A stretch of DNA of 64,000 bases from Escherichia coli (GTDB taxonomy: Bacteria > Pseudomonadota > Gammaproteobacteria > Enterobacterales > Enterobacteriaceae), in assembly GCF_024223415.1 (NCBI RefSeq), contig NZ_CP100503.1; one strand, written 5' to 3'. Of this stretch, positions 26,186 to 64,000 are shown in pieces; position 1 is the stretch's first letter; each line of letters begins with the position of its first letter. The notes under the pieces were generated by a model that searched no databases, was not told the DNA's origin, and worked only from the letters and a program-made list of their open reading frames with translations. The position numbers were made by a program, and so were the translations under genes.

Positions 26186-26219
26186 ATAACTTCGTATAGC
26201 AAACATTATACGAAGTTAT
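26186..26219 (+). other. lox: lox recombination site (loxP-like, spacer variant)
   Basis: ATAACTTCGTATA-GCAAACAT-TATACGAAGTTAT: perfect 13-bp Cre arms, spacer differs from canonical GCATACAT at one position. Confidence 0.85.
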
Positions 26220-26381
26220 CTTAAGGGTTATTGAACATGATTAATTTACCTGTAAATCCATACAGTTCAATACCTTATCAGGTCAAATAGTGATCACTTG
26301 ATCATTTGATCAAGGTTGCGCTACGTAAAATCTGCGAAATGTTGGCAGTGTTTGTGCTCCAGATTTCGCGTAGCGCATATA

Positions 26382-26425
26382 TCCCAAGATGGGACTAAAA
26401 AGCTTTACCTAATCCCAGAATGGGA
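26382..26425 (+). promoter_or_regulatory. Two palindromic putative HigA operator sites in the higBA promoter
   Basis: TCCCAAGATGGGA (26382-26394) and TCCCAGAATGGGA (26413-26425), 31 bp apart, just upstream of higB. Confidence 0.45.
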
Positions 26426-26456
26426 CTAATATACTTGCCGGGATAAGGAATATGTA

Positions 26457-26759
26457 ATGAAGATTATTTCGGTAAAAACATTGAGGGATTTTTGGTCTGT
26501 GAATCCCGATGCAGAACAACCATTAAAGGCCTGGGTTGACGAAGTCTCCAAGGCCACCTGGAAAAGCCCGGCTGATATCAAAGCGCAGTACCGATCTGCC
26601 AGCATTCTTAAAAACAGGCGGGTTGTCTTCAACATCAAAGGTAATGACTACAGATTAATTGTTGCAATTGCTTATCAGCGAGGATGGATGTTCGTTAAGT
26701 TTATTGGAACACATAAGGAATACGATGCCATCGACGCGGATACAATAGAGCTGGAGTAA
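26457..26759 (+). CDS. higB: HigB-family type II toxin (RelE/ParE superfamily mRNA interferase)
   Basis: 100 aa; C-terminal THKEYD motif and toxin-first gene order. Confidence 0.7.
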   Translation: MKIISVKTLRDFWSVNPDAEQPLKAWVDEVSKATWKSPADIKAQYRSASILKNRRVVFNIKGNDYRLIVAIAYQRGWMFVKFIGTHKEYDAIDADTIELE

Positions 26760-26762
26760 ATC

Positions 26763-27122
26763 ATGAACATTAAACCTATCCGTACAGAACAAGATTATCA
26801 GGCCGCACTACGCGCGGTCGAACCTATGTTCGATAACGAACCGGAAATGAACACCCCGGAAGGTGATTTCTTTGAGATAATGTGCCTGCTTATTGAAGAG
26901 TATGAAAAAAGACATTACCCAATTGAACCGCCTACACCCATTGAAGCGATTAAGTTCCGTATGGAACAGCAAGGGTTGACAGTGAAAGATCTGGAACCGG
27001 CGATTGGTAAGTCGAACCGTGTTTACGAAGTTCTGAATGGAACGCGAAATTTAACGTTACCAATGATTAGGCGTTTGCACGTACAGTTTGGCATTCCTCT
27101 CGAAAGTCTGGTTGGTGTGTGA
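26763..27122 (+). CDS. higA: HigA-family antitoxin (XRE-type HTH)
   Basis: 119 aa; C-terminal HTH (GKSNRVYEVLNGTRNLTLPMIRRL) resembling E. coli HigA. Confidence 0.7.
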   Translation: MNIKPIRTEQDYQAALRAVEPMFDNEPEMNTPEGDFFEIMCLLIEEYEKRHYPIEPPTPIEAIKFRMEQQGLTVKDLEPAIGKSNRVYEVLNGTRNLTLPMIRRLHVQFGIPLESLVGV

Positions 27123-27128
27123 CTTAAA

Positions 27129-28181
27129 ATGTCTAATGTCCTGACCGTACACCAAAATTTGCCTGCATTACCGGTCGATGCAACGAGTGATGAGGTTCGC
27201 AAGAACCTGATGGACATGTTCAGGGATCGCCAGGCGTTTTCTGAGCATACCTGGAAAATGCTTCTGTCCGTTTGCCGGTCGTGGGCGGCATGGTGCAAGT
27301 TGAATAACCGGAAATGGTTTCCCGCAGAACCTGAAGATGTTCGCGATTATCTTCTATATCTTCAGGCGCGCGGTCTGGCAGTAAAAACTATCCAGCAACA
27401 TTTGGGCCAGCTAAACATGCTTCATCGTCGGTCCGGGCTGCCACGACCAAGTGACAGCAATGCTGTTTCACTGGTTATGCGGCGGATCCGAAAAGAAAAC
27501 GTTGATGCCGGTGAACGTGCAAAACAGGCTCTAGCGTTCGAACGCACTGATTTCGACCAGGTTCGTTCACTCATGGAAAATAGCGATCGCTGCCAGGATA
27601 TACGTAATCTGGCATTTCTGGGGATTGCTTATAACACCCTGTTACGTATAGCCGAAATTGCCAGGATCAGGGTTAAAGATATCTCACGTACTGACGGTGG
27701 GAGAATGTTAATCCATATTGGCAGAACGAAAACGCTGGTTAGCACCGCAGGTGTAGAGAAGGCACTTAGCCTGGGGGTAACTAAACTGGTTGAGCGATGG
27801 ATTTCTGTCTCTGGTGTAGCTGATGATCCGAATAACTACCTGTTTTGCCGCGTCAGAAAAAATGGTGTTGCCGCGCCATCACCCACCAGCCAGCTATCAA
27901 CTCGCGCCCTGGAAGGGATTTTTGAAGCAACTCACCGATTGATTTACGGGGCTAAGGATGACTCTGGCCAGAGGTACCTGGCCTGGTCTGGACACAGTGC
28001 CCGTGTCGGAGCCGCGCGAGATATGGCCCGCGCCGGAGTTTCAATACCGGAGATCATGCAAGCTGGTGGCTGGACCAACGTAAATATTGTCATGAACTAT
28101 ATCCGTAACCTGGATAGTGAAACAGGGGCAATGGTGCGCCTGCTGGAAGTTGACATCCTCCCCCACCTTCGCACTTCGTGA
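27129..28181 (+). CDS. cre: Cre tyrosine recombinase with altered C-terminus
   Basis: 350 aa; matches P1 Cre as I recall it up to ...MVRLLE, then VDILPHLRTS encoded by IS end instead of DGD. Confidence 0.9.
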   Translation: MSNVLTVHQNLPALPVDATSDEVRKNLMDMFRDRQAFSEHTWKMLLSVCRSWAAWCKLNNRKWFPAEPEDVRDYLLYLQARGLAVKTIQQHLGQLNMLHRRSGLPRPSDSNAVSLVMRRIRKENVDAGERAKQALAFERTDFDQVRSLMENSDRCQDIRNLAFLGIAYNTLLRIAEIARIRVKDISRTDGGRMLIHIGRTKTLVSTAGVEKALSLGVTKLVERWISVSGVADDPNNYLFCRVRKNGVAAPSPTSQLSTRALEGIFEATHRLIYGAKDDSGQRYLAWSGHSARVGAARDMARAGVSIPEIMQAGGWTNVNIVMNYIRNLDSETGAMVRLLEVDILPHLRTS

Positions 28182-28200
28182 CTCAGGAGGGGGATTCCCA

Positions 28201-29433
28201 TTAGTGGGTGACGGCTGATTGCTCAGCGTCTGGTTCCTGCTTCAACGGGCGGTCTGACTGCACCGTCCCTCCACAGGCAAGTACGGCGTGCCCCGCCGCT
28301 AAAATGTTGCGAGCGCCGTTTACATCGGCGTTCGCTGTATATCCACAAGCCCGACACACGAATTTACTTTGTGTCAGGCGGTTTTCTTTCGCTGTATGAC
28401 CACAGCACGCGCAACGCTGGCTTGTGTACGCTGGCGGAACAGCAAGCACCTGACCACCACGCCAGAGCTGCTTGTACTCAAGCTGGCGGCGCATTTCATA
28501 CCAGCCCTGATCCAGTATCGAACGGTTTAAACCTGATTTTGCCCGGACATTGCGCCCCGGCTGGCTGACCGTACCCGCTGCTGACTTTGACATGTTGCTG
28601 ACCTTCAAATCCTCAATGACTATCATTGCGTGGTTTTTGCTGACGGTCGTTGTGACTTTGTGAAGGTAGTCCCTGCGGATATTTGCAATACGGGAATGCA
28701 GTTGCTGTATTTTGCGTTTCTGCTTCTGCCAGTTGTTGCTGAATTTGACCCTGCGGCTTAACTGTCGCTGAAGTCTCGCCAGCTTCTTCTGGTTTTTCTG
28801 AAAACTGTTTACAGGTTCAAAGACTGTGCCATCTGACAGCGTGGCGAGTTTAGCCACGCCAGCATCCAGACCGACTATCGTTGTGCTTGTGTGATTTGGT
28901 TCTGCCGTTTCAATTTCAACCTGAAACGAGATATACCACTGTCCCGCTAACTGACTGATTGTCGCATTTTTGATTTTACCGTTCACACGTTGAGATTGCC
29001 GGAATTTTACCCACCCAAGACCTGACGGTAGCTTCACTCTGCGATTTTCAAGGCAGCAATATTTCTCAAAGTTCACAAAACGGATTGAGTCTCTGCCCTC
29101 ATTTTTTCGTTTCCATACCGGAGCCTTAGCTGCGAGCTTTTTATCAAAACAACGTTTCCATGCGGTATGCAGGTCTTTCAGCTTTTGTTGCAGATTGTCG
29201 GTATAAGCATCCTGTAAGAAGATATATTCCGGCATTTTTTTCCACACTGTAATCATCCGGTTCAACTCGAAAGCCGAAGGTAACTTTTCGCCTGAGCCAA
29301 GTACGCGCTTTGTCTCCGCAAGACCTAAATTCCAGACAAAACGGGCGCAACCACATAACTGCCGCAAACGCTGCGACTGTTCATGCGTTGGTTCCAGTCT
29401 GAATTTGTAGGCTTTCAGGATTAGCATCATCAT
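28201..29433 (-). CDS. tnpB: TnpB (OrfB-family RNA-guided nuclease-like protein)
   Basis: 410 aa; C-terminal RuvC-like and zinc-finger region ([13 protein letters not shown]...[18 protein letters not shown]). Confidence 0.85.
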
Positions 29434-29485
29434 TCAGTGTGTAGTAGATTTTCTTGCAATATTACTGTTTTTACGGCCAACCTCA

Positions 29486-29890
29486 ATGCAAAAATACAAA
29501 ATCAATCGTTCAAGACATGCTGCCTTCCTTTTGCATGTTCATCTTGTCTTTGTAACAAAATACCGTCGAAAGATACTGGGAGAGTTACACTGTGCAGCAT
29601 TCCATCAGTATGCAGCAGAAGTCTGCCGTGACTTTGGGGCAGAACTTAAAGAAAGTAACGGAGATGTCGATCATGTCCACATGCTGATCGAATACCCACC
29701 AACAGTGCAGCTTTCGGTACTGGTTAACTCACTGAAAGCAGTGACATCCCGCCGTCTGCGAAACGAATTTCTTGATTTGCGGGGGGCATACGGAAAAGCC
29801 GTGCTCTGGTCGAGGTCATACTTTGCTGGCTCCTGCGGAGGTGCGCCGCTGGAAGTTGTGAAGCAATATATTCAACATCAGCGAGGCTGA
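29486..29890 (+). CDS. tnpA: IS200-type Y1 (HUH) transposase TnpA
   Basis: 134 aa; HVHLVF, HuH motif DHVHMLI, catalytic Tyr region WSRSYFAGS. Confidence 0.85.
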   Translation: MQKYKINRSRHAAFLLHVHLVFVTKYRRKILGELHCAAFHQYAAEVCRDFGAELKESNGDVDHVHMLIEYPPTVQLSVLVNSLKAVTSRRLRNEFLDLRGAYGKAVLWSRSYFAGSCGGAPLEVVKQYIQHQRG

Positions 29891-29995
29891 GCACCCTTCG
29901 GGCTTTTCAAGCCCGTCCAAATTCCCCTGCCGCCTTATGTCGGCGGGAGTACCCTTTGGAAGTTAAGATGGCGATTAGCCATTAACGCGTAAATG

Positions 29996-30012
29996 ATTGC
30001 TCTAATTCTTTG
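29996..30012 (+). promoter_or_regulatory. C1 operator
   Basis: ATTGCTCTAATTCTTTG. Confidence 0.55.
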
Positions 30013-30028
30013 ATATTTATGGTGACAT

Positions 30029-30340
30029 ATGAGAAAGGATTTCAACATCGACGGAAAATATGTAGTGCTGTCTGTAAGCACTAATATTCAGTCGCCAGCC
30101 GTCATTGTCACTGTAAAGCTGAGCGATAGAATACCTGATATTGACTCAATATCCGTTGCGTTCCCTGTCAAAAGTATTCGTAGTGCTGAACATTTCGTGA
30201 TGAATGCCACCGAGGAAGAAGCACGGCGCGGTTTTGCTAAAGTGATGTCTGAGTTTGGCGAACTCTTGGGTAAGGTTAACAATGTCCTTTCAATCAGTTC
30301 AGCAAGGTCCAAAGCGTTAACAGCTTCCATGATGAAATAA
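30029..30340 (+). CDS. Hypothetical protein
   Basis: 103 aa ORF immediately downstream of a C1 operator. Confidence 0.4.
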   Translation: MRKDFNIDGKYVVLSVSTNIQSPAVIVTVKLSDRIPDIDSISVAFPVKSIRSAEHFVMNATEEEARRGFAKVMSEFGELLGKVNNVLSISSARSKALTASMMK

Positions 30341-30471
30341 AAAAAGCCTGGCAAGGAGCCAGGCTGCACAAAAGAGCGGGTTTGTATTCCGCATCCAATC
30401 AATCAAGAAGGAGTATAGCACACAGGTACTGAAGTGAAAAAATGTGATTCGCGATTAACAAAATATCTACC

Positions 30472-35973: not shown

Positions 35974-38900
35974 TTATGCGTATTGTTGGATGACGGCCAG
36001 AACGTCCGCCACGTTGTGTTTTGTCTCGATAATCCACCAGTTACCCGGGAAATCGCTGTTCTTCGCCTTCGCTGGCAGCCAGCGAGCGCCGAATTTCGCC
36101 TTGATTGCGTCTTTCGCACGGAAAAGAACCCCTTTCATGCCTGAGGCTTCCTGAAGCCCAAATACCTCGCCAGCGGCGAATTTTGGTGCGTACATCATCT
36201 TCAGGTCGGCGGTGGATACGCGATAATTCAGGCCAAGAGACTGAGCTATGCTGGTGGCATCACCCTGTATTGATGATAACTCTTCTTGTTTCTCGTTTCT
36301 GGCGGCAATCTCTTCCTCCGTGATGTTGCCAAGGGCCAGGTTTATCCGATCAGCGTCGGCCTGTTTCTCTTCATCGGTGCGCCCGGCAAGAACCGTGTTA
36401 ATTCTCTGCAATATCTCCACATGATTCTTGCGCATGCTGAGCAATTCCGGCGTAACCTCGTTAAGATCCACCAGCCCAAGGATGGCAAGGTCGGAAAACA
36501 TTGATACCAGGTTGTAGGTCATGCGATAGCTGAGTTGACCATAGGCTGATGGCAACTTCACCGCATCCATTTGATAGGCATCCATAAATTTAGAGCCGTC
36601 GTTTACGACATCCGCTATTGCAGGTGTGATTTTCCCTGTGGTGGCGGCCTCCCTGATTGCTGTTACCCACGATTGAGTCAGCGCGGCGACTGCATGATTC
36701 AGATTGGCTTTCCGTTCTGCTGCGATGCGCGCGCTTGCTGCGTCCATTGCCTGCTTGATCTCGGCTTTATTGCTGTAAATGCCAATGGTGCCAAACTGTG
36801 CTGTGGTGATCTCATAATCTGACGCCCGGAACTCATTGGTACCGAAAATGGCATTGGTGACTTCAAGTTCAGAATCCCCGTTACGAGTAGCCCCCTGGCT
36901 TGTTTTTTCCGGCATTCTGGCGATCGCATCCGCTATTTTCTCCTGAATTGCTTCAGGGGATAGCGTATCTCCGTATGACGCGATTACATCGCCATAATTG
37001 GAGCCAAACAATTCAACCAGGAATGTTTCTGCCGAACGGATCTGGCGGTTATTCCCTTCCGACATCATACCAAGCACCCATTTTGCAATTGACGACTTCA
37101 GCGCGCCGTCACGGCGATCCGGGTAAACCGCATGCTTCAGTGGGTCCGTATAGGTACCAACAAAATCAATGCTATAGCCTGACTCTGTAGTCTGAACGCC
37201 GTATGAGTCAGTGATTTTGATCATGCCGCGCTGCTGGAAACGGTAGAAATCGTCACAGGAAATGATGTCGTTAATCCCGGCGATGGAGACGCCACCACTG
37301 ATTTTCTGCATAACAGCATCTTCATCGGGAGTTACATCCACCTGTTTATCCAGCGTCTTCACATCCCAGTTACCCGATTTGGTGCCTTTGAAGGTAAAGA
37401 TGATCTCCACGTCTGCGCGCTGGCTGTCGAAGTCCAGCGACTTAATGCGAACGATATCACCGGCACAATCGTAGTATTGGCCTACACGCCATGAGCGATC
37501 GCCGATAACAAGGAACTCACTCGCATGGTTAACCAGGTCAGGATCAACATCCAGAATGCCTTTATTTATTGCATCCTCCACCAGCGGGCGCAGGCGTTTG
37601 ATATCCGTCGCGGCCTTCTGAGTACGGTTCAATAATTTCTCATAGCGGGAGATGGCTTGAGAGATATTAGCCTTGCGCTGAATGGCGTTTTTCAACGACG
37701 CGCGATACTGTGCTAACAACATACGGTCTGTGTGATGGACGCTCCCCCAGCGGGCCTTCCAGTCTGCGTTATCAGCTGCTTTGGCCATTACCGCCTGTTT
37801 GAATTTAGCTACCTCGGCGGTGGTCTTTTCAAGTTCCGCTTTGCTTCGCTCTAATTCAGCGGTAAGTACCTCCACATCCTCGCCAGCTGCGTGCTGCGCC
37901 TTGATGTAGTTCTGAAGGTCGATAGTAGCCTGTTCTTTCTGGCGAGCGCGTTGCGCGGCTTTCGCCTTATCCATTTGAACCTGCATCATTGCCAGACGTT
38001 CGCCATCATCCTTAGCGGTATACATCTGCATTTCGATCATATCGTTGGCGTCGGCGTTCTCCATTTCAGACTTATCTGAGCGGAGGATATCGGAGATCCA
38101 GCCTGCTTTACGCTTCAGCGTCTTCAGTCGGTATTCATCGAAAGAACCCTTGCCGCAGTAGTAGTGAACGCGAACGCTTGCACGGTTGGAACCAACTCGG
38201 GCACCGCGACCGTTACGCTGTGCGATACTGGCTGGTGTCCATGGCAACGTCAGATGATGGATGTCAGTCGTTCCTCGATGCAGGTTGATACCCACCTCTG
38301 CCTTTTTGTTGCAGATGATGATCGGAGTCCGGCCCTCCTGGAAGTCGGCAGCAATCTTTTCCAGCCCACCCAGCGACATTTCATTTTGCTGCGCGATATA
38401 GGCGTCATACAGAGCCATTTGCTCGTTGTATTTCGCTATCTGTGCATCTGTTGGTTCATCCGGTAGCTCTTTCGGCGGTTTAACCGCTTTCAGTTTCTTA
38501 CCGGTTTTACCTGCCTCGGCAACCGTCTGAGCATTCAGGATCCCCACCTTTGAAGGTTCAAGGTTAAGAGCATTGCAGATAATGCGCTTGAGCTTCTGGT
38601 GTTGCGTTTTTTCATCGGTGAAGATGATTTGCTTACCTTCCGGGAAAAACTCCTTCAGCGTGGCGATCAGCTTCGCGTATTTCGGCGTAACGGGGTGAGT
38701 TACGGTCTGTTCGTCAATGCCAAACCTGGCCAGGCGCTTATTCACTTCCTGCTCGAACGCTTCCGGAACCTGCAACTGAATAAACTCGCCCTTATCTATC
38801 AGGGAGTATTGCGATTGCTGCGTGATCGAATCATCACTGTCGTCGTCTTCGCTGGTGGCTTGTTTAGGCAAACTGTCCGCCAGCTGCTGCACCGCATCGG

Positions 38901-40863
38901 CGTACTCCGGCAGGAAACGATAGGTGATCCTGCGATAGTACAGGTCCATGTCAGTACATACGCGGTCCATATCCCTGATTATTGAGAAGATCGGACGGGC
39001 TTTCTCGTGCTCAATCACGCCGTCTTCATTGACCGAGGTCGTTACGCCATTGTTGGCTTTGGCTGCCGCTTCCGCCTGCTGACGCAATTCTTCATACGCC
39101 GCCAGTTGTTCTTCCGTAAGTGGTGCATCCTGCTGGTGTTCGTCCAGTTCCGGGATCTCCACGGTATCCTTAACGTCTTCCGCCGTTTTAAGCGTTGTCC
39201 AGCGATGGAATATGCCGCGCAGCGCATCAAGGTTTTCAAAGCCCACCAGCGCCATTTTTTCTTCAACTTCACCGCTAATTTTCTGTACCGTTTCCAGCCT
39301 GGTCTTGCCGAAGAATTTAACGAAGTCATCAGGACCGTAGATCCCCATCTTCTGCCAGTATTCCTTCGGCAGCACATGAGAAAGCATGTTGTATGCATCG
39401 ATCGGGGTGTTAACGACTGGCGTTGCAGTCAGGAGAACCGGTCCGCGCCCACCATTCTTTTTCATCAGGTACGCGTTTTTAATTGCCATATCCCGCGCCG
39501 ATTGCGCCACCGCGCTGGTGGGCAGATAGGCCAGTTGTGACGCTTCGCGACCATTTTTATAGCTATTGCGGTAGTTGTGACCTTCGTCAGCGATCACACT
39601 ATCGAAGCCCATATCCTCAAAGTACGGATACTTCTCTGCTTTTTCGGTGCCGGTATCTGAATACTCCGACAATACCCGGCGACGCGCGGCCTCTTTGCGG
39701 TGGGAGTCGGAGTCCATTGCGCTGGCTACGCGCCCGGCGGCAACGAAGTCATAAAGCATATCCTGTGCATGCTCATCTACGGTGTCATCACGTAGCGGAA
39801 TGCGGGCGTATTGTTCTTTGGTAAACACGACTGCACGGTAATTTGAGTGCGGGATCGCGTTCATCCGCGCCGTGATAGTGGCTTCATCTGCCAGCTTAAG
39901 AGCATCGCGCATAACTGGAGTGCCATCAGTACCAAGAACAGGTTTACCGTTCTCATTGAGCACCGGCACCTGGCGAATCTGATCGCCATCCATCAGCACA
40001 TCAAGACCGACGAACAGGTAGTTACTGAATGCCTCTTCACTCAGGAACTCTTTTGCTTCGTAATACCAGTTTTCCAGCACTGATTTAGGCACTACATACG
40101 CAGTACGGGTGGAACGACCGTTCTCATAGTTGAACGCCTCAAGCGCCAGCGCGGTCGTGGTTTTACCCAGCCCGGTACCGAAGCCCAGGATGCCGCGCCC
40201 ATCTTCGGACAGTCGGCGCACCTCGCTATTCTGGTAATCAAATGGCTGTCGCTTACCGCTTAATCCCTTCAACCCAAGCGGATCGCCAGAGTGTTCATAC
40301 GGGATATTGCTATTGAACACATCGTTGTATTTGGCAACCAGCTCATCGTAGCGATCGTGCGTCTTGATCCACTTATTGAACTGGTCCTCAAGCAGTGCCA
40401 TCTGCTCGCGGTAGCCGTTCGCCGTCGCGCTATCTTTGCCACCGATACGCGCACCATTGAGATACTTTTCCAGCTGTGCCGGGAACCCGGTCGCGTTTTC
40501 ACCTGATTTACGGTCCCACTCGTAGCGGATCTCGCCTGTTTCTTTATCCTTGCGCTGGACGACACCGTATCGGTGCCCGACGAACAGACCATCACCACCG
40601 TGATAGGTGTCAGAAACCATTTCGTCGCCTTCCAGCTGCACTGACTGCACATAGCGAAGATCCGGATAGCCGTTTTCCTGCAAAAATTCCAGAATGACGG
40701 AACGGTCGAACCAACGGCTATTGAGCTTAAAGCGGATATTCTCTGCTGGCGTCTTGATGCGCTTCTCTTCGATCGCTGCCAGCTGATTAAGGACGTTGTT
40801 CTTTACCCAGTGCGCCGTAAAGCCCCGTCCTTCAGGTCGGGGATATAAGGCGCGGTTTTCCAC
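35974..40863 (-). CDS. Large SF2 helicase-domain protein, 5'-truncated by IS insertion (DarB-like anti-restriction candidate)
   Basis: 1629 codons; Walker A GFGTGLGKTT, DEGH box, TATP, QRNGRGARVGS; first 19 codons (40807-40863) are IS left-end sequence, host-derived part starts at 40806. Confidence 0.5.
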   Translation of the reverse strand: MENRALYPRPEGRGFTAHWVKNNVLNQLAAIEEKRIKTPAENIRFKLNSRWFDRSVILEFLQENGYPDLRYVQSVQLEGDEMVSDTYHGGDGLFVGHRYGVVQRKDKETGEIRYEWDRKSGENATGFPAQLEKYLNGARIGGKDSATANGYREQMALLEDQFNKWIKTHDRYDELVAKYNDVFNSNIPYEHSGDPLGLKGLSGKRQPFDYQNSEVRRLSEDGRGILGFGTGLGKTTTALALEAFNYENGRSTRTAYVVPKSVLENWYYEAKEFLSEEAFSNYLFVGLDVLMDGDQIRQVPVLNENGKPVLGTDGTPVMRDALKLADEATITARMNAIPHSNYRAVVFTKEQYARIPLRDDTVDEHAQDMLYDFVAAGRVASAMDSDSHRKEAARRRVLSEYSDTGTEKAEKYPYFEDMGFDSVIADEGHNYRNSYKNGREASQLAYLPTSAVAQSARDMAIKNAYLMKKNGGRGPVLLTATPVVNTPIDAYNMLSHVLPKEYWQKMGIYGPDDFVKFFGKTRLETVQKISGEVEEKMALVGFENLDALRGIFHRWTTLKTAEDVKDTVEIPELDEHQQDAPLTEEQLAAYEELRQQAEAAAKANNGVTTSVNEDGVIEHEKARPIFSIIRDMDRVCTDMDLYYRRITYRFLPEYADAVQQLADSLPKQATSEDDDSDDSITQQSQYSLIDKGEFIQLQVPEAFEQEVNKRLARFGIDEQTVTHPVTPKYAKLIATLKEFFPEGKQIIFTDEKTQHQKLKRIICNALNLEPSKVGILNAQTVAEAGKTGKKLKAVKPPKELPDEPTDAQIAKYNEQMALYDAYIAQQNEMSLGGLEKIAADFQEGRTPIIICNKKAEVGINLHRGTTDIHHLTLPWTPASIAQRNGRGARVGSNRASVRVHYYCGKGSFDEYRLKTLKRKAGWISDILRSDKSEMENADANDMIEMQMYTAKDDGERLAMMQVQMDKAKAAQRARQKEQATIDLQNYIKAQHAAGEDVEVLTAELERSKAELEKTTAEVAKFKQAVMAKAADNADWKARWGSVHHTDRMLLAQYRASLKNAIQRKANISQAISRYEKLLNRTQKAATDIKRLRPLVEDAINKGILDVDPDLVNHASEFLVIGDRSWRVGQYYDCAGDIVRIKSLDFDSQRADVEIIFTFKGTKSGNWDVKTLDKQVDVTPDEDAVMQKISGGVSIAGINDIISCDDFYRFQQRGMIKITDSYGVQTTESGYSIDFVGTYTDPLKHAVYPDRRDGALKSSIAKWVLGMMSEGNNRQIRSAETFLVELFGSNYGDVIASYGDTLSPEAIQEKIADAIARMPEKTSQGATRNGDSELEVTNAIFGTNEFRASDYEITTAQFGTIGIYSNKAEIKQAMDAASARIAAERKANLNHAVAALTQSWVTAIREAATTGKITPAIADVVNDGSKFMDAYQMDAVKLPSAYGQLSYRMTYNLVSMFSDLAILGLVDLNEVTPELLSMRKNHVEILQRINTVLAGRTDEEKQADADRINLALGNITEEEIAARNEKQEELSSIQGDATSIAQSLGLNYRVSTADLKMMYAPKFAAGEVFGLQEASGMKGVLFRAKDAIKAKFGARWLPAKAKNSDFPGNWWIIETKHNVADVLAVIQQYA

Positions 40864-41280
40864 CTAACCAGGTGTTTGCTGTTGTTCAATGTATTGGCGG
40901 ATGATGGATATTGGTGCGCCACCGCAGCTACTGGCAAAATAGCTGGGACTCCATAAAACGCCTTTGTAGTAATATCGGGCTGCAATATCTGGTCGATCTC
41001 GTCGCAATAATCTACTCGATACGCCCTTGAGACTGTTCACCAGGCTGGATATCGCCAATTTGGGGGGATAGTTAATTAGCAGGTGAACGTGATCTCGTTC
41101 TCCATCCATTTCAACCAGTTCAGCTTCAAAATCAGCACATACACTTGAAAAGTAAGTGCGTAGTTTTTCTATTGCGTCATGGTCAAAAATCTGACGTCGG
41201 TATTTTGCGACAAAGACCAGGTGAACGTGCATCAGGAAGACGCAGTGTCTTCCACGTCGGATATCAGTTTCTTTTTTTAT
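40864..41280 (-). pseudogene. tnpA: IS200-type transposase tnpA with start codon changed to ATA
   Basis: Copy 3 has ATG at the equivalent position (63558-63560); copy 2 has ATA at 41278-41280; ORF track only finds a TTG-initiated 178-aa extension. Confidence 0.5.
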
Positions 41281-42511
41281 GGACCAAAGTATAATTTGGC
41301 TTATGAAACGACTACAAGCTTTCAAATTCCAGTTAAGACCAAATGGACAGCAGGAGCGTGAAATGAGGCGCTTCGCGGGCGCATGTCGTTTCGTTTTCAA
41401 TCGTGCTCTGGCGCTTCAGAATGAGAATCATGAGGCCGGGAACAAATATATTTCTTATGCAAAGATGACTTCCTGGCTGGTTGAATGGAAAAATGCTACT
41501 GAAACGCAATGGCTTAAAGATTCTCCCTCACAGCCATTGCAGCAGTCACTGAAAGACCTTGAGCGAGCCTACAAAAATTTCTTTCAGAAGCGTGCCTCTT
41601 TTCCCCGCTTCAAAAAGCGGGGACAGAATGATGCATTCCGCTATCCGCAGGGCGTTAAGCTCGACCAAGGGAACGGTCGTATTTTTCTGCCAAAACTTGG
41701 CTGGATGCACTACCGGAACAGCCGTCAGGTCTCGGGGATTGTGAAAAACGTCACTGTCAGCCAGTCCTGCGGTAAGTGGTACATCAGTATTCAGACAGAA
41801 AGTGAAGTATCAACTCCGGTTCACCCTTCAGCATCAATAGTCGGTCTGGATGCAGGCGTGGCTAAACTCGCCACGCTGTCAGATGGCACAGTCTTTGAGC
41901 CTGTAAACAGTTTTCAGAAAAACCAGAAGACGCTGGCGAGACTTCAGCGACAGTTAAGCCGCAAGGTCAAATTCAGCAACAACTGGCAGAAGCAGAAATG
42001 CAAAATACAGCGACTGCATTCCCGTATCGCAAATATCCGCAGGGACTACCTTCACAAAGTCACAACGACCGTCAGCAAAAACCACGCCATGATAGTCATT
42101 GAGGATTTGAAGGTCAGTAACATGTCAAAGTCAGCAGCGGGTACGGTCAGCCAGCCGGGGCGCAATGTCCGGGCAAAATCAGGTTTAAACCGTTCGATAC
42201 TGGATCAGGGCTGGTATGAAATGCGCCGTCAGCTTGAGTACAAGCAGCTCTGGCGAGGCGGTCAGGTGCTTGCGGTTCCGCCAGCGTACACAAGCCAGCG
42301 TTGCGCGTGCTGTGGTCATACAGCGAAAGAAAACCGCCTGTCACAAAGTCAATTCAGATGCCAGGTATGTGGATATACAGCGAACGCCGATGTAAACGGC
42401 GCTCGTAACATTTTAGCGGCGGGGCACGCCGTTCTTGCCTGTGGAGGGATGGTGCAGTCAGGCCGCCCGTTGAAGCAGGAACCCACCGAAATGATTCAGG
42501 CGACAGCCTGA
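41279..42511 (+). CDS. tnpB: TnpB
   Basis: 410 aa; C-terminal 230 aa nearly identical to tnpB at 28201-29433, N-terminal half divergent. Confidence 0.85.
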
Positions 42512-42592
42512 ACGTAGCAGGAATCCACGTCCTTCAGGGCGTGGAGGATGTCAATGGAGCCTCCCCTTCTCTGCCGACGTTCAGGGGGGTTT

Positions 42593-63143: not shown

Positions 63144-63560
63144 CTAACCAGGTGTTTGCTGTTGTTCAATGTATTGGCGGATGATGGATATTGGTGCGCC
63201 ACCGCAGCTACTGGCAAAATAGCTGGGACTCCATAAAACGCCTTTGTAGTAATATCGGGCTGCAATATCTGGTCGATCTCGTCGCAATAATCTACTCGAT
63301 ACGCCCTTGAGACTGTTCACCAGGCTGGATATCGCCAATTTGGGGGGATAGTTAATTAGCAGGTGAACGTGATCTCGTTCTCCATCCATTTCAACCAGTT
63401 CAGCTTCAAAATCAGCACATACACTTGAAAAGTAAGTGCGTAGTTTTTCTATTGCGTCATGGTCAAAAATCTGACGTCGGTATTTTGCGACAAAGACCAG
63501 GTGAACGTGCATCAGGAAGACGCAGTGTCTTCCACGTCGGATATCAGTTTCTTTTTTCAT
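63144..63560 (-). CDS. tnpA: IS200-type Y1 transposase TnpA (intact ATG start)
   Basis: 139 aa from ATG at 63558-63560 (MKKETDIRRGRHCVFLMHVHLVF...); HuH motif DHVHLLI. Confidence 0.8.
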   Translation of the reverse strand: MKKETDIRRGRHCVFLMHVHLVFVAKYRRQIFDHDAIEKLRTYFSSVCADFEAELVEMDGERDHVHLLINYPPKLAISSLVNSLKGVSSRLLRRDRPDIAARYYYKGVLWSPSYFASSCGGAPISIIRQYIEQQQTPG

Positions 63561-64000
63561 GGACCAAAGTATAATTTGGCTTATGAAACGACTACAAGCT
63601 TTCAAATTCCAGTTAAGACCAAATGGACAGCAGGAGCGTGAAATGAGGCGCTTCGCGGGCGCATGTCGTTTCGTTTTCAATCGTGCTCTGGCGCTTCAGA
63701 ATGAGAATCATGAGGCCGGGAACAAATATATTTCTTATGCAAAGATGACTTCCTGGCTGGTTGAATGGAAAAATGCTACTGAAACGCAATGGCTTAAAGA
63801 TTCTCCCTCACAGCCATTGCAGCAGTCACTGAAAGACCTTGAGCGAGCCTACAAAAATTTCTTTCAGAAGCGTGCCTCTTTTCCCCGCTTCAAAAAGCGG
63901 GGACAGAATGATGCATTCCGCTATCCGCAGGGCGTTAAGCTCGACCAAGGGAACGGTCGTATTTTTCTGCCAAAACTTGGCTGGATGCACTACCGGAACA
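63559..64000 (+). CDS. tnpB: TnpB (5' part, continues beyond window)
   Basis: Same sequence as tnpB at 41279; divergent from tnpA with overlapping CATG starts. Confidence 0.8.
   Translation, partial: MDQSIIWLMKRLQAFKFQLRPNGQQEREMRRFAGACRFVFNRALALQNENHEAGNKYISYAKMTSWLVEWKNATETQWLKDSPSQPLQQSLKDLERAYKNFFQKRASFPRFKKRGQNDAFRYPQGVKLDQGNGRIFLPKLGWMHYRN

Follow-up and report, generated by a model that had tools for sequence, protein, structure and literature searches.

In a 64,000-nucleotide stretch of Escherichia coli DNA (RefSeq assembly GCF_024223415.1, contig NZ_CP100503.1; hereafter the window), the P1-type recombinase gene cre is interrupted close to its 3' end by an insertion sequence (IS) of the IS200/IS605 family. 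The cre sequence runs to CTGCTGGAAG (28140..28149), IS sequence (TTGACATCCTCC..., also written TTGACATCC...) takes over from position 28150, and the displaced end of cre, beginning ATGGCGATTAG, is found on the far side of the element (Table 1). The hybrid open reading frame (ORF) consists of Cre residues 1-340 followed by ten IS-encoded residues and its product ends in ...MVRLLEVDILPHLRTS (in longer form ...SETGAMVRLLEVDILPHLRTS), whereas Cre of phage P1 (NC_005856) ends in ...SETGAMVRLLEDGD, i.e. ...MVRLLEDGD. DGD is replaced by VDILPHLRTS, and the length of the protein rises from 343 to 350 residues.

The original prediction, made from the letters of the window, had placed the end of cre, the IS-encoded tail with its stop codon and the displaced cre end beyond the IS at just these positions, and it agrees with the sequence to the base, including the seven extra residues; the joined flanks also match an uninterrupted cre gene. 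It had stated that P1 Cre ends in LLEDGD and named this as a point that could overturn it, and the P1 reference bears the statement out. The insert that it took for an IS proves to be a complete IS200/IS605-family element, with profile matches for both TnpA and TnpB. Its claim that the acidic tail was lost holds in part: DGD is replaced and the new tail is about neutral (net charge about 0, against -2 for the native tail), but the new tail has one Asp of its own, at position 342.

Table 1. Features of the interrupted cre gene, the inserted element and their surroundings (positions in the window).
Feature	Position	Strand	Basis or remark
lox site, Cre substrate, one spacer change (GCAAACAT vs canonical GCATACAT)	26186..26219	+	
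HigB-toxin/helix-turn-helix (HTH)-antitoxin-like pair	26378..27126 (higB-like 26457..26759, higA-like 26763..27122)		
Hybrid cre ORF, 350 aa = Cre residues 1-340 + VDILPHLRTS (10 IS-encoded residues), TGA stop	27129..28181	+	ORF translation, P1 comparison
cre-derived part, codons 1-340 and first base of codon 341	27129..28149	+	comparison with NZ_CP128972.1 and P1
Match, without differences, to the c8 promoter predicted in the P1 annotation; lies within the 3' end of cre	28087..28118	+	
Flank adjoining the right end on its 3' side, predicted template of the TnpB guide (CTTCCAGCAGGCGCACCATT; antisense to codons 334-340 of cre)	28130..28149	-	inferred from family mechanism
IS200/IS605-family insertion sequence, 1,818 bp	28150..29967	- (active top strand = window minus; left end 29967, right end 28150)	same ends at 9 independent sites
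IS right-end stretch translated in the cre frame to (V)DILPHLRTS and stop	28150..28181	+	
Right-end subterminal hairpin region, terminus ...GGGGGAGGATGTCAA	28150..28200	-	DNA fold -20.1 kcal/mol, z -2.9
tnpB, RNA-guided endonuclease family gene, 408-410 aa	28201..29433	-	NF040570
Sub-threshold RAGATH-18 match, where the omega-RNA scaffold is expected	28234..28277	-	28.1 bits vs gathering score 44.9, E 0.032
tnpA, Y1 HUH transposase, 134 aa	29486..29890	+	NF033573
Left end with subterminal hairpin CCGCCGACATAAGGCGG	29891..29967	-	DNA fold -19.3 kcal/mol, z -2.2
Target tetranucleotide 5'-CCAT-3' (ATGG on plus), native cre sequence abutting the IS left end, presumed transposon-associated motif (TAM) of TnpB	29968..29971	-	
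Displaced cre end (AT GGC GAT TAG)	29968..29978	+	sequence, empty-site comparison
c8, annotated 'lysogeny establishment protein'	30029..30340	+	
Second, different IS200/IS605-family element, right end ...GGAGGATGTCAA at 42555	40864..42555	tnpA - (about 40864..41250), tnpB + (41279..42511)	

The insertion, its target and the inserted element

Only the first base of codon 341, the fourth-from-last codon of cre, precedes the insertion point, and the other two reading frames of the right end would add 22 residues or 1 residue. Upstream of it, the protein is that of P1 almost throughout: in a phmmer search against PDB sequences, residues 1-340 aligned to 343-residue Cre chains with an E-value of 2.8e-227 and L4V and A252P as the only substitutions, and the first 1,021 nt of cre differ from P1 at 14 positions. 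Both substitutions are also present in the uninterrupted sister allele, and residue 252 lies within VAAPSATSQ, a stretch that we take to lie in the alpha J-K loop of the Cre structure. The alpha J-K loop is described as flexible and involved in DNA recognition in a cryo-electron microscopy (cryo-EM) study (PMC8860596).

We then searched for the empty site by joining the two cre flanks in silico and running them against complete E. coli genomes. A 97-kb plasmid of E. coli TUM1886 (NZ_CP128972.1) matched 100% of the 2,509-bp joined query at 99.9% identity and shares with the window the order lox, higB-higA-like pair, cre and c8. Its first 1,021 nt of cre show no difference from the window, the 60-nt flanks are contiguous, and the site reads ...CTGCTGGAAG|ATGGCGATTAG, with a product ending in ...LLEDGD*. 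Joining position 28149 to 29968 thus gives the uninterrupted cre of this plasmid base for base, with no base duplicated or lost. Since the ATGG next to the left end is present in this empty site, it is native cre target sequence and lies outside the element. Such duplication-free insertion 3' of a fixed motif is the signature of IS200/IS605 transposition, and the cre::IS junction is confirmed as a real event, not a chance resemblance. Because TGGAAGTT recurs near both ends, we considered a target-site duplication; this was rejected, as the right-hand occurrence belongs to the IS itself and is found in all its copies.

By every sequence-level test the element belongs to the IS200/IS605 family. 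TnpA matches NF033573 (transpos_IS200) with 139.3 bits (cutoff 55) and, aligned with TnpA of IS608, conserves the HxH motif (DHVHM) and the C-terminal Tyr (in VVKQYI). TnpB matches NF040570 (NCBIfam guided_TnpB) with 361.2 bits (cutoff 100) and, aligned with TnpB of ISDra2, keeps the RuvC-like D-E-D triad as counterparts of D191, E278 and D361 (GLDAG, VIEDL and the third motif) together with a CxxC..CxxC zinc finger; the sister loci carry the Pfam domains OrfB_IS605 and Cas12f1-like_TNB. Comparison of the element ends (TTGACATCC... and CTTAACTTCC...) revealed no terminal inverted repeats between them, and hairpins are predicted near both.

Near-identical copies of the element are very common in E. 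coli genomes and plasmids, and we extracted eight further ones from unrelated sites (DUF2057, dadA, pemK, traC, darA, pilV, If1 and hok). Together with the window copy, all nine begin with TTGACATCC and terminate in GGAAGTTAAG, and all nine have ATGG (CCAT on the top strand of the element) abutting the tnpA-side left end, while the flank on the tnpB side is variable. ISEc46 was considered as a name, but the literature gave neither its length nor its target, and no ISfinder name was assigned. The copy in the reference genome of the filamentous phage If1 (NC_001954 / U02303, 5306..7137) is 97% identical, 1,827 bp long and adjoins ATGG; the annotation there shows tnpB as no more than 'ORF348 / hypothetical protein' and everything else as intergenic region. 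In plasmid pVTB432v-3 (NZ_CP178693.1, 252..341), another P1-like plasmid, the same IS truncates darA in the same frame and leaves the tail DILPHLRTS (...VLDIDILPHLRTS*), and RefSeq calls this hybrid an ordinary DarA protein.

The cre gene contains 11 CCAT/ATGG motifs. Codons 1-340 are retained solely by insertion at the site used here, after nt 1021, and insertion at any of the other ten would truncate Cre before residue 340. This pattern fits random target use followed by survival of a harmless insertion, and together with its matched empty site the locus provides a clean worked example of target choice (CCAT) in the IS200/IS605 family.

Occurrence of the interrupted allele

The exact 350-residue protein, listed as 'site-specific integrase [Escherichia coli]', is present on 153 public contigs of up to 103 kb (228 index blocks) and has been called in assemblies of independent origin (NCBI, ENA and Logan); its uninterrupted counterpart, which also carries L4V and A252P, is present on 4 contigs. 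These occurrences of the junction came from exact-protein look-up, in draft and metagenome assemblies only. We fetched nine junction loci (L010-L018, one of them from a metagenome) for comparison, with the empty-site plasmid as L019. All nine have the order c1 ... higB higA cre::IS c8. Elsewhere they diverge: L011 has an additional DDE transposase upstream, L015 carries Ref in place of Ant downstream, and others show up to 55 single-nucleotide polymorphisms upstream. Their cre DNA is identical, which leaves a test for selection on cre without power. Thus, the cre::IS allele is real, of single origin and successful.

Within the IS, one shared set of 9 differences separates seven of the nine loci (L010, L011 and L013-L017) from the window, all within 132 bp of tnpB (28573..28704) and with none elsewhere in the element. 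L012 has 6 differences, three from the clustered set and three of its own (28456, 28735 and 28751). L018 ends at about 28455 inside the IS and is identical over the part covered, which does not include the clustered positions. The pattern resembles gene conversion between copies of the IS more than it does point mutation.

As an IS insertion in a gene of a phage-plasmid, the event is of an ordinary, known type; the hybrid protein is already deposited, although we found no description of it. What is noteworthy is that Cre is cut at its experimentally defined functional limit and that the allele has persisted widely. For annotation, entries in E. coli named 'site-specific integrase, 350 aa' are Cre with a transposon-encoded tail.

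Predicted activity of the hybrid recombinase

We consider it likely that the 350-residue protein recombines lox at or near the wild-type level. Judged by every sequence criterion except its last three residues, the gene is cre. The catalytic residues of this tyrosine recombinase, R173, K201, H289, R292, W315 and Y324, all lie upstream of the junction and are invariant in an alignment with 19 relatives (27-42% identity), and the hybrid keeps helix N through Glu340 (...ETGAMVRLLE). It lacks the native ...DGD, yet this does not exclude it from the Cre group, because the tail is unconserved in the wider family: beyond position 340 the 19 relatives carry from 0 to about 10 residues of varied composition (e.g. 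...LMEGASQPPDEAQ).

Published work on the Cre C-terminus points in the same direction. Truncations that remove 2 or 3 residues are fully active, while those that remove four or more are 'totally inactive' (Duplus-Bottin et al. 2021, PMC7997657). In the same study, E340 contacts R192 of the neighbouring subunit, the D341-R139 salt bridge is 'not essential', and a C-terminal Cre-GGSG-VVD fusion stays active (PMC7997657). In the cryo-EM structure of the tetramer, residues 20-341 were modelled and residues 342-343 were not (PMC8860596). The allele is most likely active, or no more than mildly impaired, because E340 is the last required residue and residues 341-343 are dispensable (PMC7997657), the last two being unmodelled (PMC8860596).

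The sequence shows that the element entered cre of this P1-like E. coli phage-plasmid on the 3' side of a CCAT in the gene's bottom strand, presumably by the single-strand 'peel and paste' route of its family, and that translation passes Glu340 into the right end of the IS for 10 codons to yield Cre(1-340)-VDILPHLRTS. The replaced residues are dispensable, poorly ordered and naturally variable, and in the explanation that we propose Cre could therefore still recombine lox, and this retained function would have allowed the insertion to be tolerated and to spread. Two side effects would come with this reading: the predicted c8 promoter within cre is displaced by 1.8 kb from c8, and TnpB would take up a guide from the cre flank and so recognise the uninterrupted allele. 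Precise excision by TnpA would restore wild-type cre, and for this reason the four empty alleles may be either ancestors or revertants.

Several points weigh against this explanation. Since cre is not essential for P1 maintenance, and its loss is tolerated by P1 plasmids, the allele may be prevalent because it hitch-hikes on a plasmid or host clone that is itself successful. At a query coverage of at least 80%, the junction is absent from 5,426 complete E. coli genomes, 72,556 PLSDB plasmids and 50,697 phage records (INPHARED), and a search of IMG/VR likewise gave 0 matches. Furthermore, the new tail replaces and extends the native end instead of simply deleting it: the D341-R139 salt bridge is lost, and the hydrophobic residues V, I, L, P and L come to lie beside helix N, which docks into the neighbouring subunit and, in free Cre, over the protein's own DNA-binding surface (PMC8860596; preprint PMC11661208). 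The E340A/D341A double mutant loses about 10% of its activity and is severely affected in sensitised backgrounds (PMC7997657). Finally, the yeast assay behind 'fully active' is saturating for the wild type, and moderate defects could hide in it (PMC7997657).

These points also feed an alternative that we regard as unlikely, namely that the allele is a hypomorph or a null, with a tail that disturbs the docking of helix N in trans or alters its autoinhibitory docking in cis. Plasmid survival would then rest on partition, on host recombination and on toxin-antitoxin modules, among them the HigBA pair located just upstream, in line with the established tolerance of P1 plasmids to cre loss. The shift in net tail charge from -2 to about 0 and the change in the lox spacer of the window are consistent with such a defect, as is the finding that residues 330-343 control oligomerisation and exert a roughly six-fold autoinhibition of DNA binding (PMC8860596; preprint PMC11661208). 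Loss of the D341-R139 salt bridge could add to it, considering that activity is lowered in E340A/D341A and markedly lower in E340R/D341A and E340R/D341R (PMC7997657). However, Cre is fully active without residues 341-343 and stays active with bulky fusions at its C-terminus (PMC7997657), and neither the length nor the sequence of the tail is conserved in relatives. Moreover, the allele has been sampled far more often than its uninterrupted sister (153 vs 4 contigs), and cre shows no secondary decay in the nine sister loci, although these by construction encode an identical protein.

A different explanation, which strikes us as rather improbable, is that the insertion persists mainly through the element itself, either as a self-maintaining drive within the P1 family, in which TnpB carrying a cre guide cuts empty (wild-type or reverted) cre sites and so makes the IS be copied into them, or through read-out from tnpA that alters c8. 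For the drive, a guide RNA would run through the right end into the cre flank and would program TnpB against wild-type cre (CCAT followed by CTTCCAGCAGGCGCAC). The TnpB catalytic residues are intact, and the minus strand of wild-type cre reads ...ATCGCCAT|CTTCCAGCAGGCGCACC, i.e. CCAT and immediately thereafter the flank matching the predicted guide; CCAT is the presumed TAM of this TnpB. As potential targets, 643 of the 5,426 complete E. coli genomes have an uninterrupted cre 3' end, with 335 records identical over 51 nt, and occupied alleles outnumber empty ones in the lineage by 153:4. The guide RNA, the TAM and the nuclease activity of this TnpB are nonetheless all predicted. The scaffold region folds more stably than shuffled sequence (RNA fold z -3.6), but its sole Rfam match, RAGATH-18, lies below threshold at 28.1 bits against 44.9, and we did not count it as proof of a guide RNA. 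RAGATH-18 is described as the TnpB guide RNA of IS607 elements (PMC11061315).

As for read-out, tnpA points toward c8, which is no longer near its predicted promoter. That promoter is annotated in P1 within cre (P1 nt 1394-1425), and the distance from it to the c8 start codon grows from 93 bp to 1,911 bp, such that the insertion would move it 1.8 kb from c8. Against this, a consensus promoter and terminator scan of 27900..30400 remained at chance level (3 sites vs 2.2 expected) and is uninformative on c8 expression. Both drive and read-out are compatible with a functional Cre and do not replace it.

It is a long shot that, through this IS copy, the plasmid has come to bear an RNA-guided nuclease directed against cre of every other P1-family element (guide CTTCCAGCAGGCGCAC...). 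If so, TnpB would cut any uninterrupted cre beside its CCAT motif, would erase revertants and would either convert co-resident or superinfecting P1-like genomes by homing or destroy them, making it an accidental phage-plasmid weapon. This could explain the 153 to 4 excess of the occupied allele in the lineage, and the element may have been able to take on this role only because, of the CCAT sites in cre, it occupies the single one compatible with a functional recombinase.

Lastly, an assembly chimera or sequencing artefact, which could account for the absence of the junction from the three curated collections of complete records and from IMG/VR, is refuted by the exact 350-residue product on 153 public contigs of up to 103 kb from independent assemblies, and both junctions obey the target rule of the element.

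An active hybrid enzyme would be informative beyond this locus. Few enzymes are used as widely in genetics as Cre, whose C-terminal helix is under current study as a switch for assembly and autoinhibition. The locus may also offer a natural case in which a TnpB guide points at a gene common to many phage-plasmids. By ending the native sequence at Glu340, the allele would provide independent, population-scale support for the functional boundary of Cre, and with its neutral, partly hydrophobic tail in place of an acidic one it offers a ready-made variant bearing on how the tail tunes autoinhibition.

Surroundings of cre and comparison with known systems

The window lox site matches the 34-bp loxP at 33 of 34 positions, with 0 such matches expected by chance, and its mismatch falls in the 8-bp spacer. 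All nine sister loci and the empty-site plasmid have the canonical loxP spacer, and the change is private to the window. Recombination at lox depends on spacer homology. For this reason the window lox should, judging from its sequence, recombine poorly with canonical loxP, while two copies of the same plasmid still share their spacers.

Upstream of cre, a HigBA-like pair stands where P1 has cra and the annotated promoters P2cre and P1cre (P1 nt 176-433). The lox-proximal 175 bp, with P3cre and a LexA site, is the only upstream part shared with P1 (93% identity). As cre starts 6 nt past the antitoxin stop, it is probably co-transcribed with the toxin-antitoxin pair.

The second IS200/IS605-family element in the window has a tnpB that is in part 96% identical to that of the cre element. 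Directly beside it is a DarB-like ORF (35974..40863) from which some 645 N-terminal residues of the 2,278-position family profile are missing, and for this reason we place the element at a point of truncation or rearrangement. A third tnpA-like ORF (63144..63680) has 178 residues and an 80% match to tnpA of the cre element, both as for the copy at 40864..41400, and probably belongs to a further copy of the second element that extends beyond the window end.

Compared with P1 itself, the window has the same neighbourhood, c1 ... lox ... cre c8 with lox upstream, and a recombinase that shares all catalytic residues with the 343-residue P1 Cre (PDB 1NZB, 1CRX, 7RHX and others) and is identical over residues 1-340 except for L4V and A252P; the two differ at residues 341-343, DGD in P1 and transposon-encoded VDILPHLRTS here.

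Among characterised transposons, IS608 and ISDra2 insert 3' of a fixed short motif without target duplication, at TTAC and TTGAT, respectively; IS605 has divergent gene order, and the right end of IS608 is TCAA. The cre element shares with IS608 and IS605 (Helicobacter pylori) and ISDra2 (Deinococcus) a Y1 HUH TnpA with TnpB, subterminal hairpins and the lack of inverted repeats. Its genes are divergent as in IS605 and its right end is TCAA as in IS608, but it differs from IS608 and ISDra2 in its target, CCAT, and in low protein identity (phmmer E about 1e-18 for TnpA and 1e-43 for TnpB). An insertion of the same family in P1-like E. coli phage-plasmids is IS609 of pJIE250-3 and pSvP1, which lies between the head-processing and lysis operons and likewise has TCAA as its right cleavage site (Venturini et al. 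2019, PMC6906374). It is 1,340 bp long with TTAT as its left site (PMC6906374), in contrast to the 1,818 bp with both genes and the CCAT of the cre element, and identity of the two was rejected on length and target.

Finally, the hybrid protein can be set beside two kinds of engineered Cre. The C-ter delta-2 and delta-3 variants, which end at or just after Glu340 and are fully active (PMC7997657), share the missing residues of the natural allele, but they simply stop, whereas the natural allele adds 10 foreign residues. Engineered fusions, such as Cre-GGSG-VVD (PMC7997657) and ligand-regulated Cre-receptor proteins, carry extra polypeptide after helix N without recombination being abolished. 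An example of the latter, P0019 (622 aa), stands in the representative library as an engineered construct among 'natural' predicted proteins; it is Cre fused at D343 to a receptor domain, and its partner reads as a steroid-receptor ligand-binding domain. These fusions keep D341-G342-D343 and add a designed linker, whereas in the hybrid the junction falls directly after E340.

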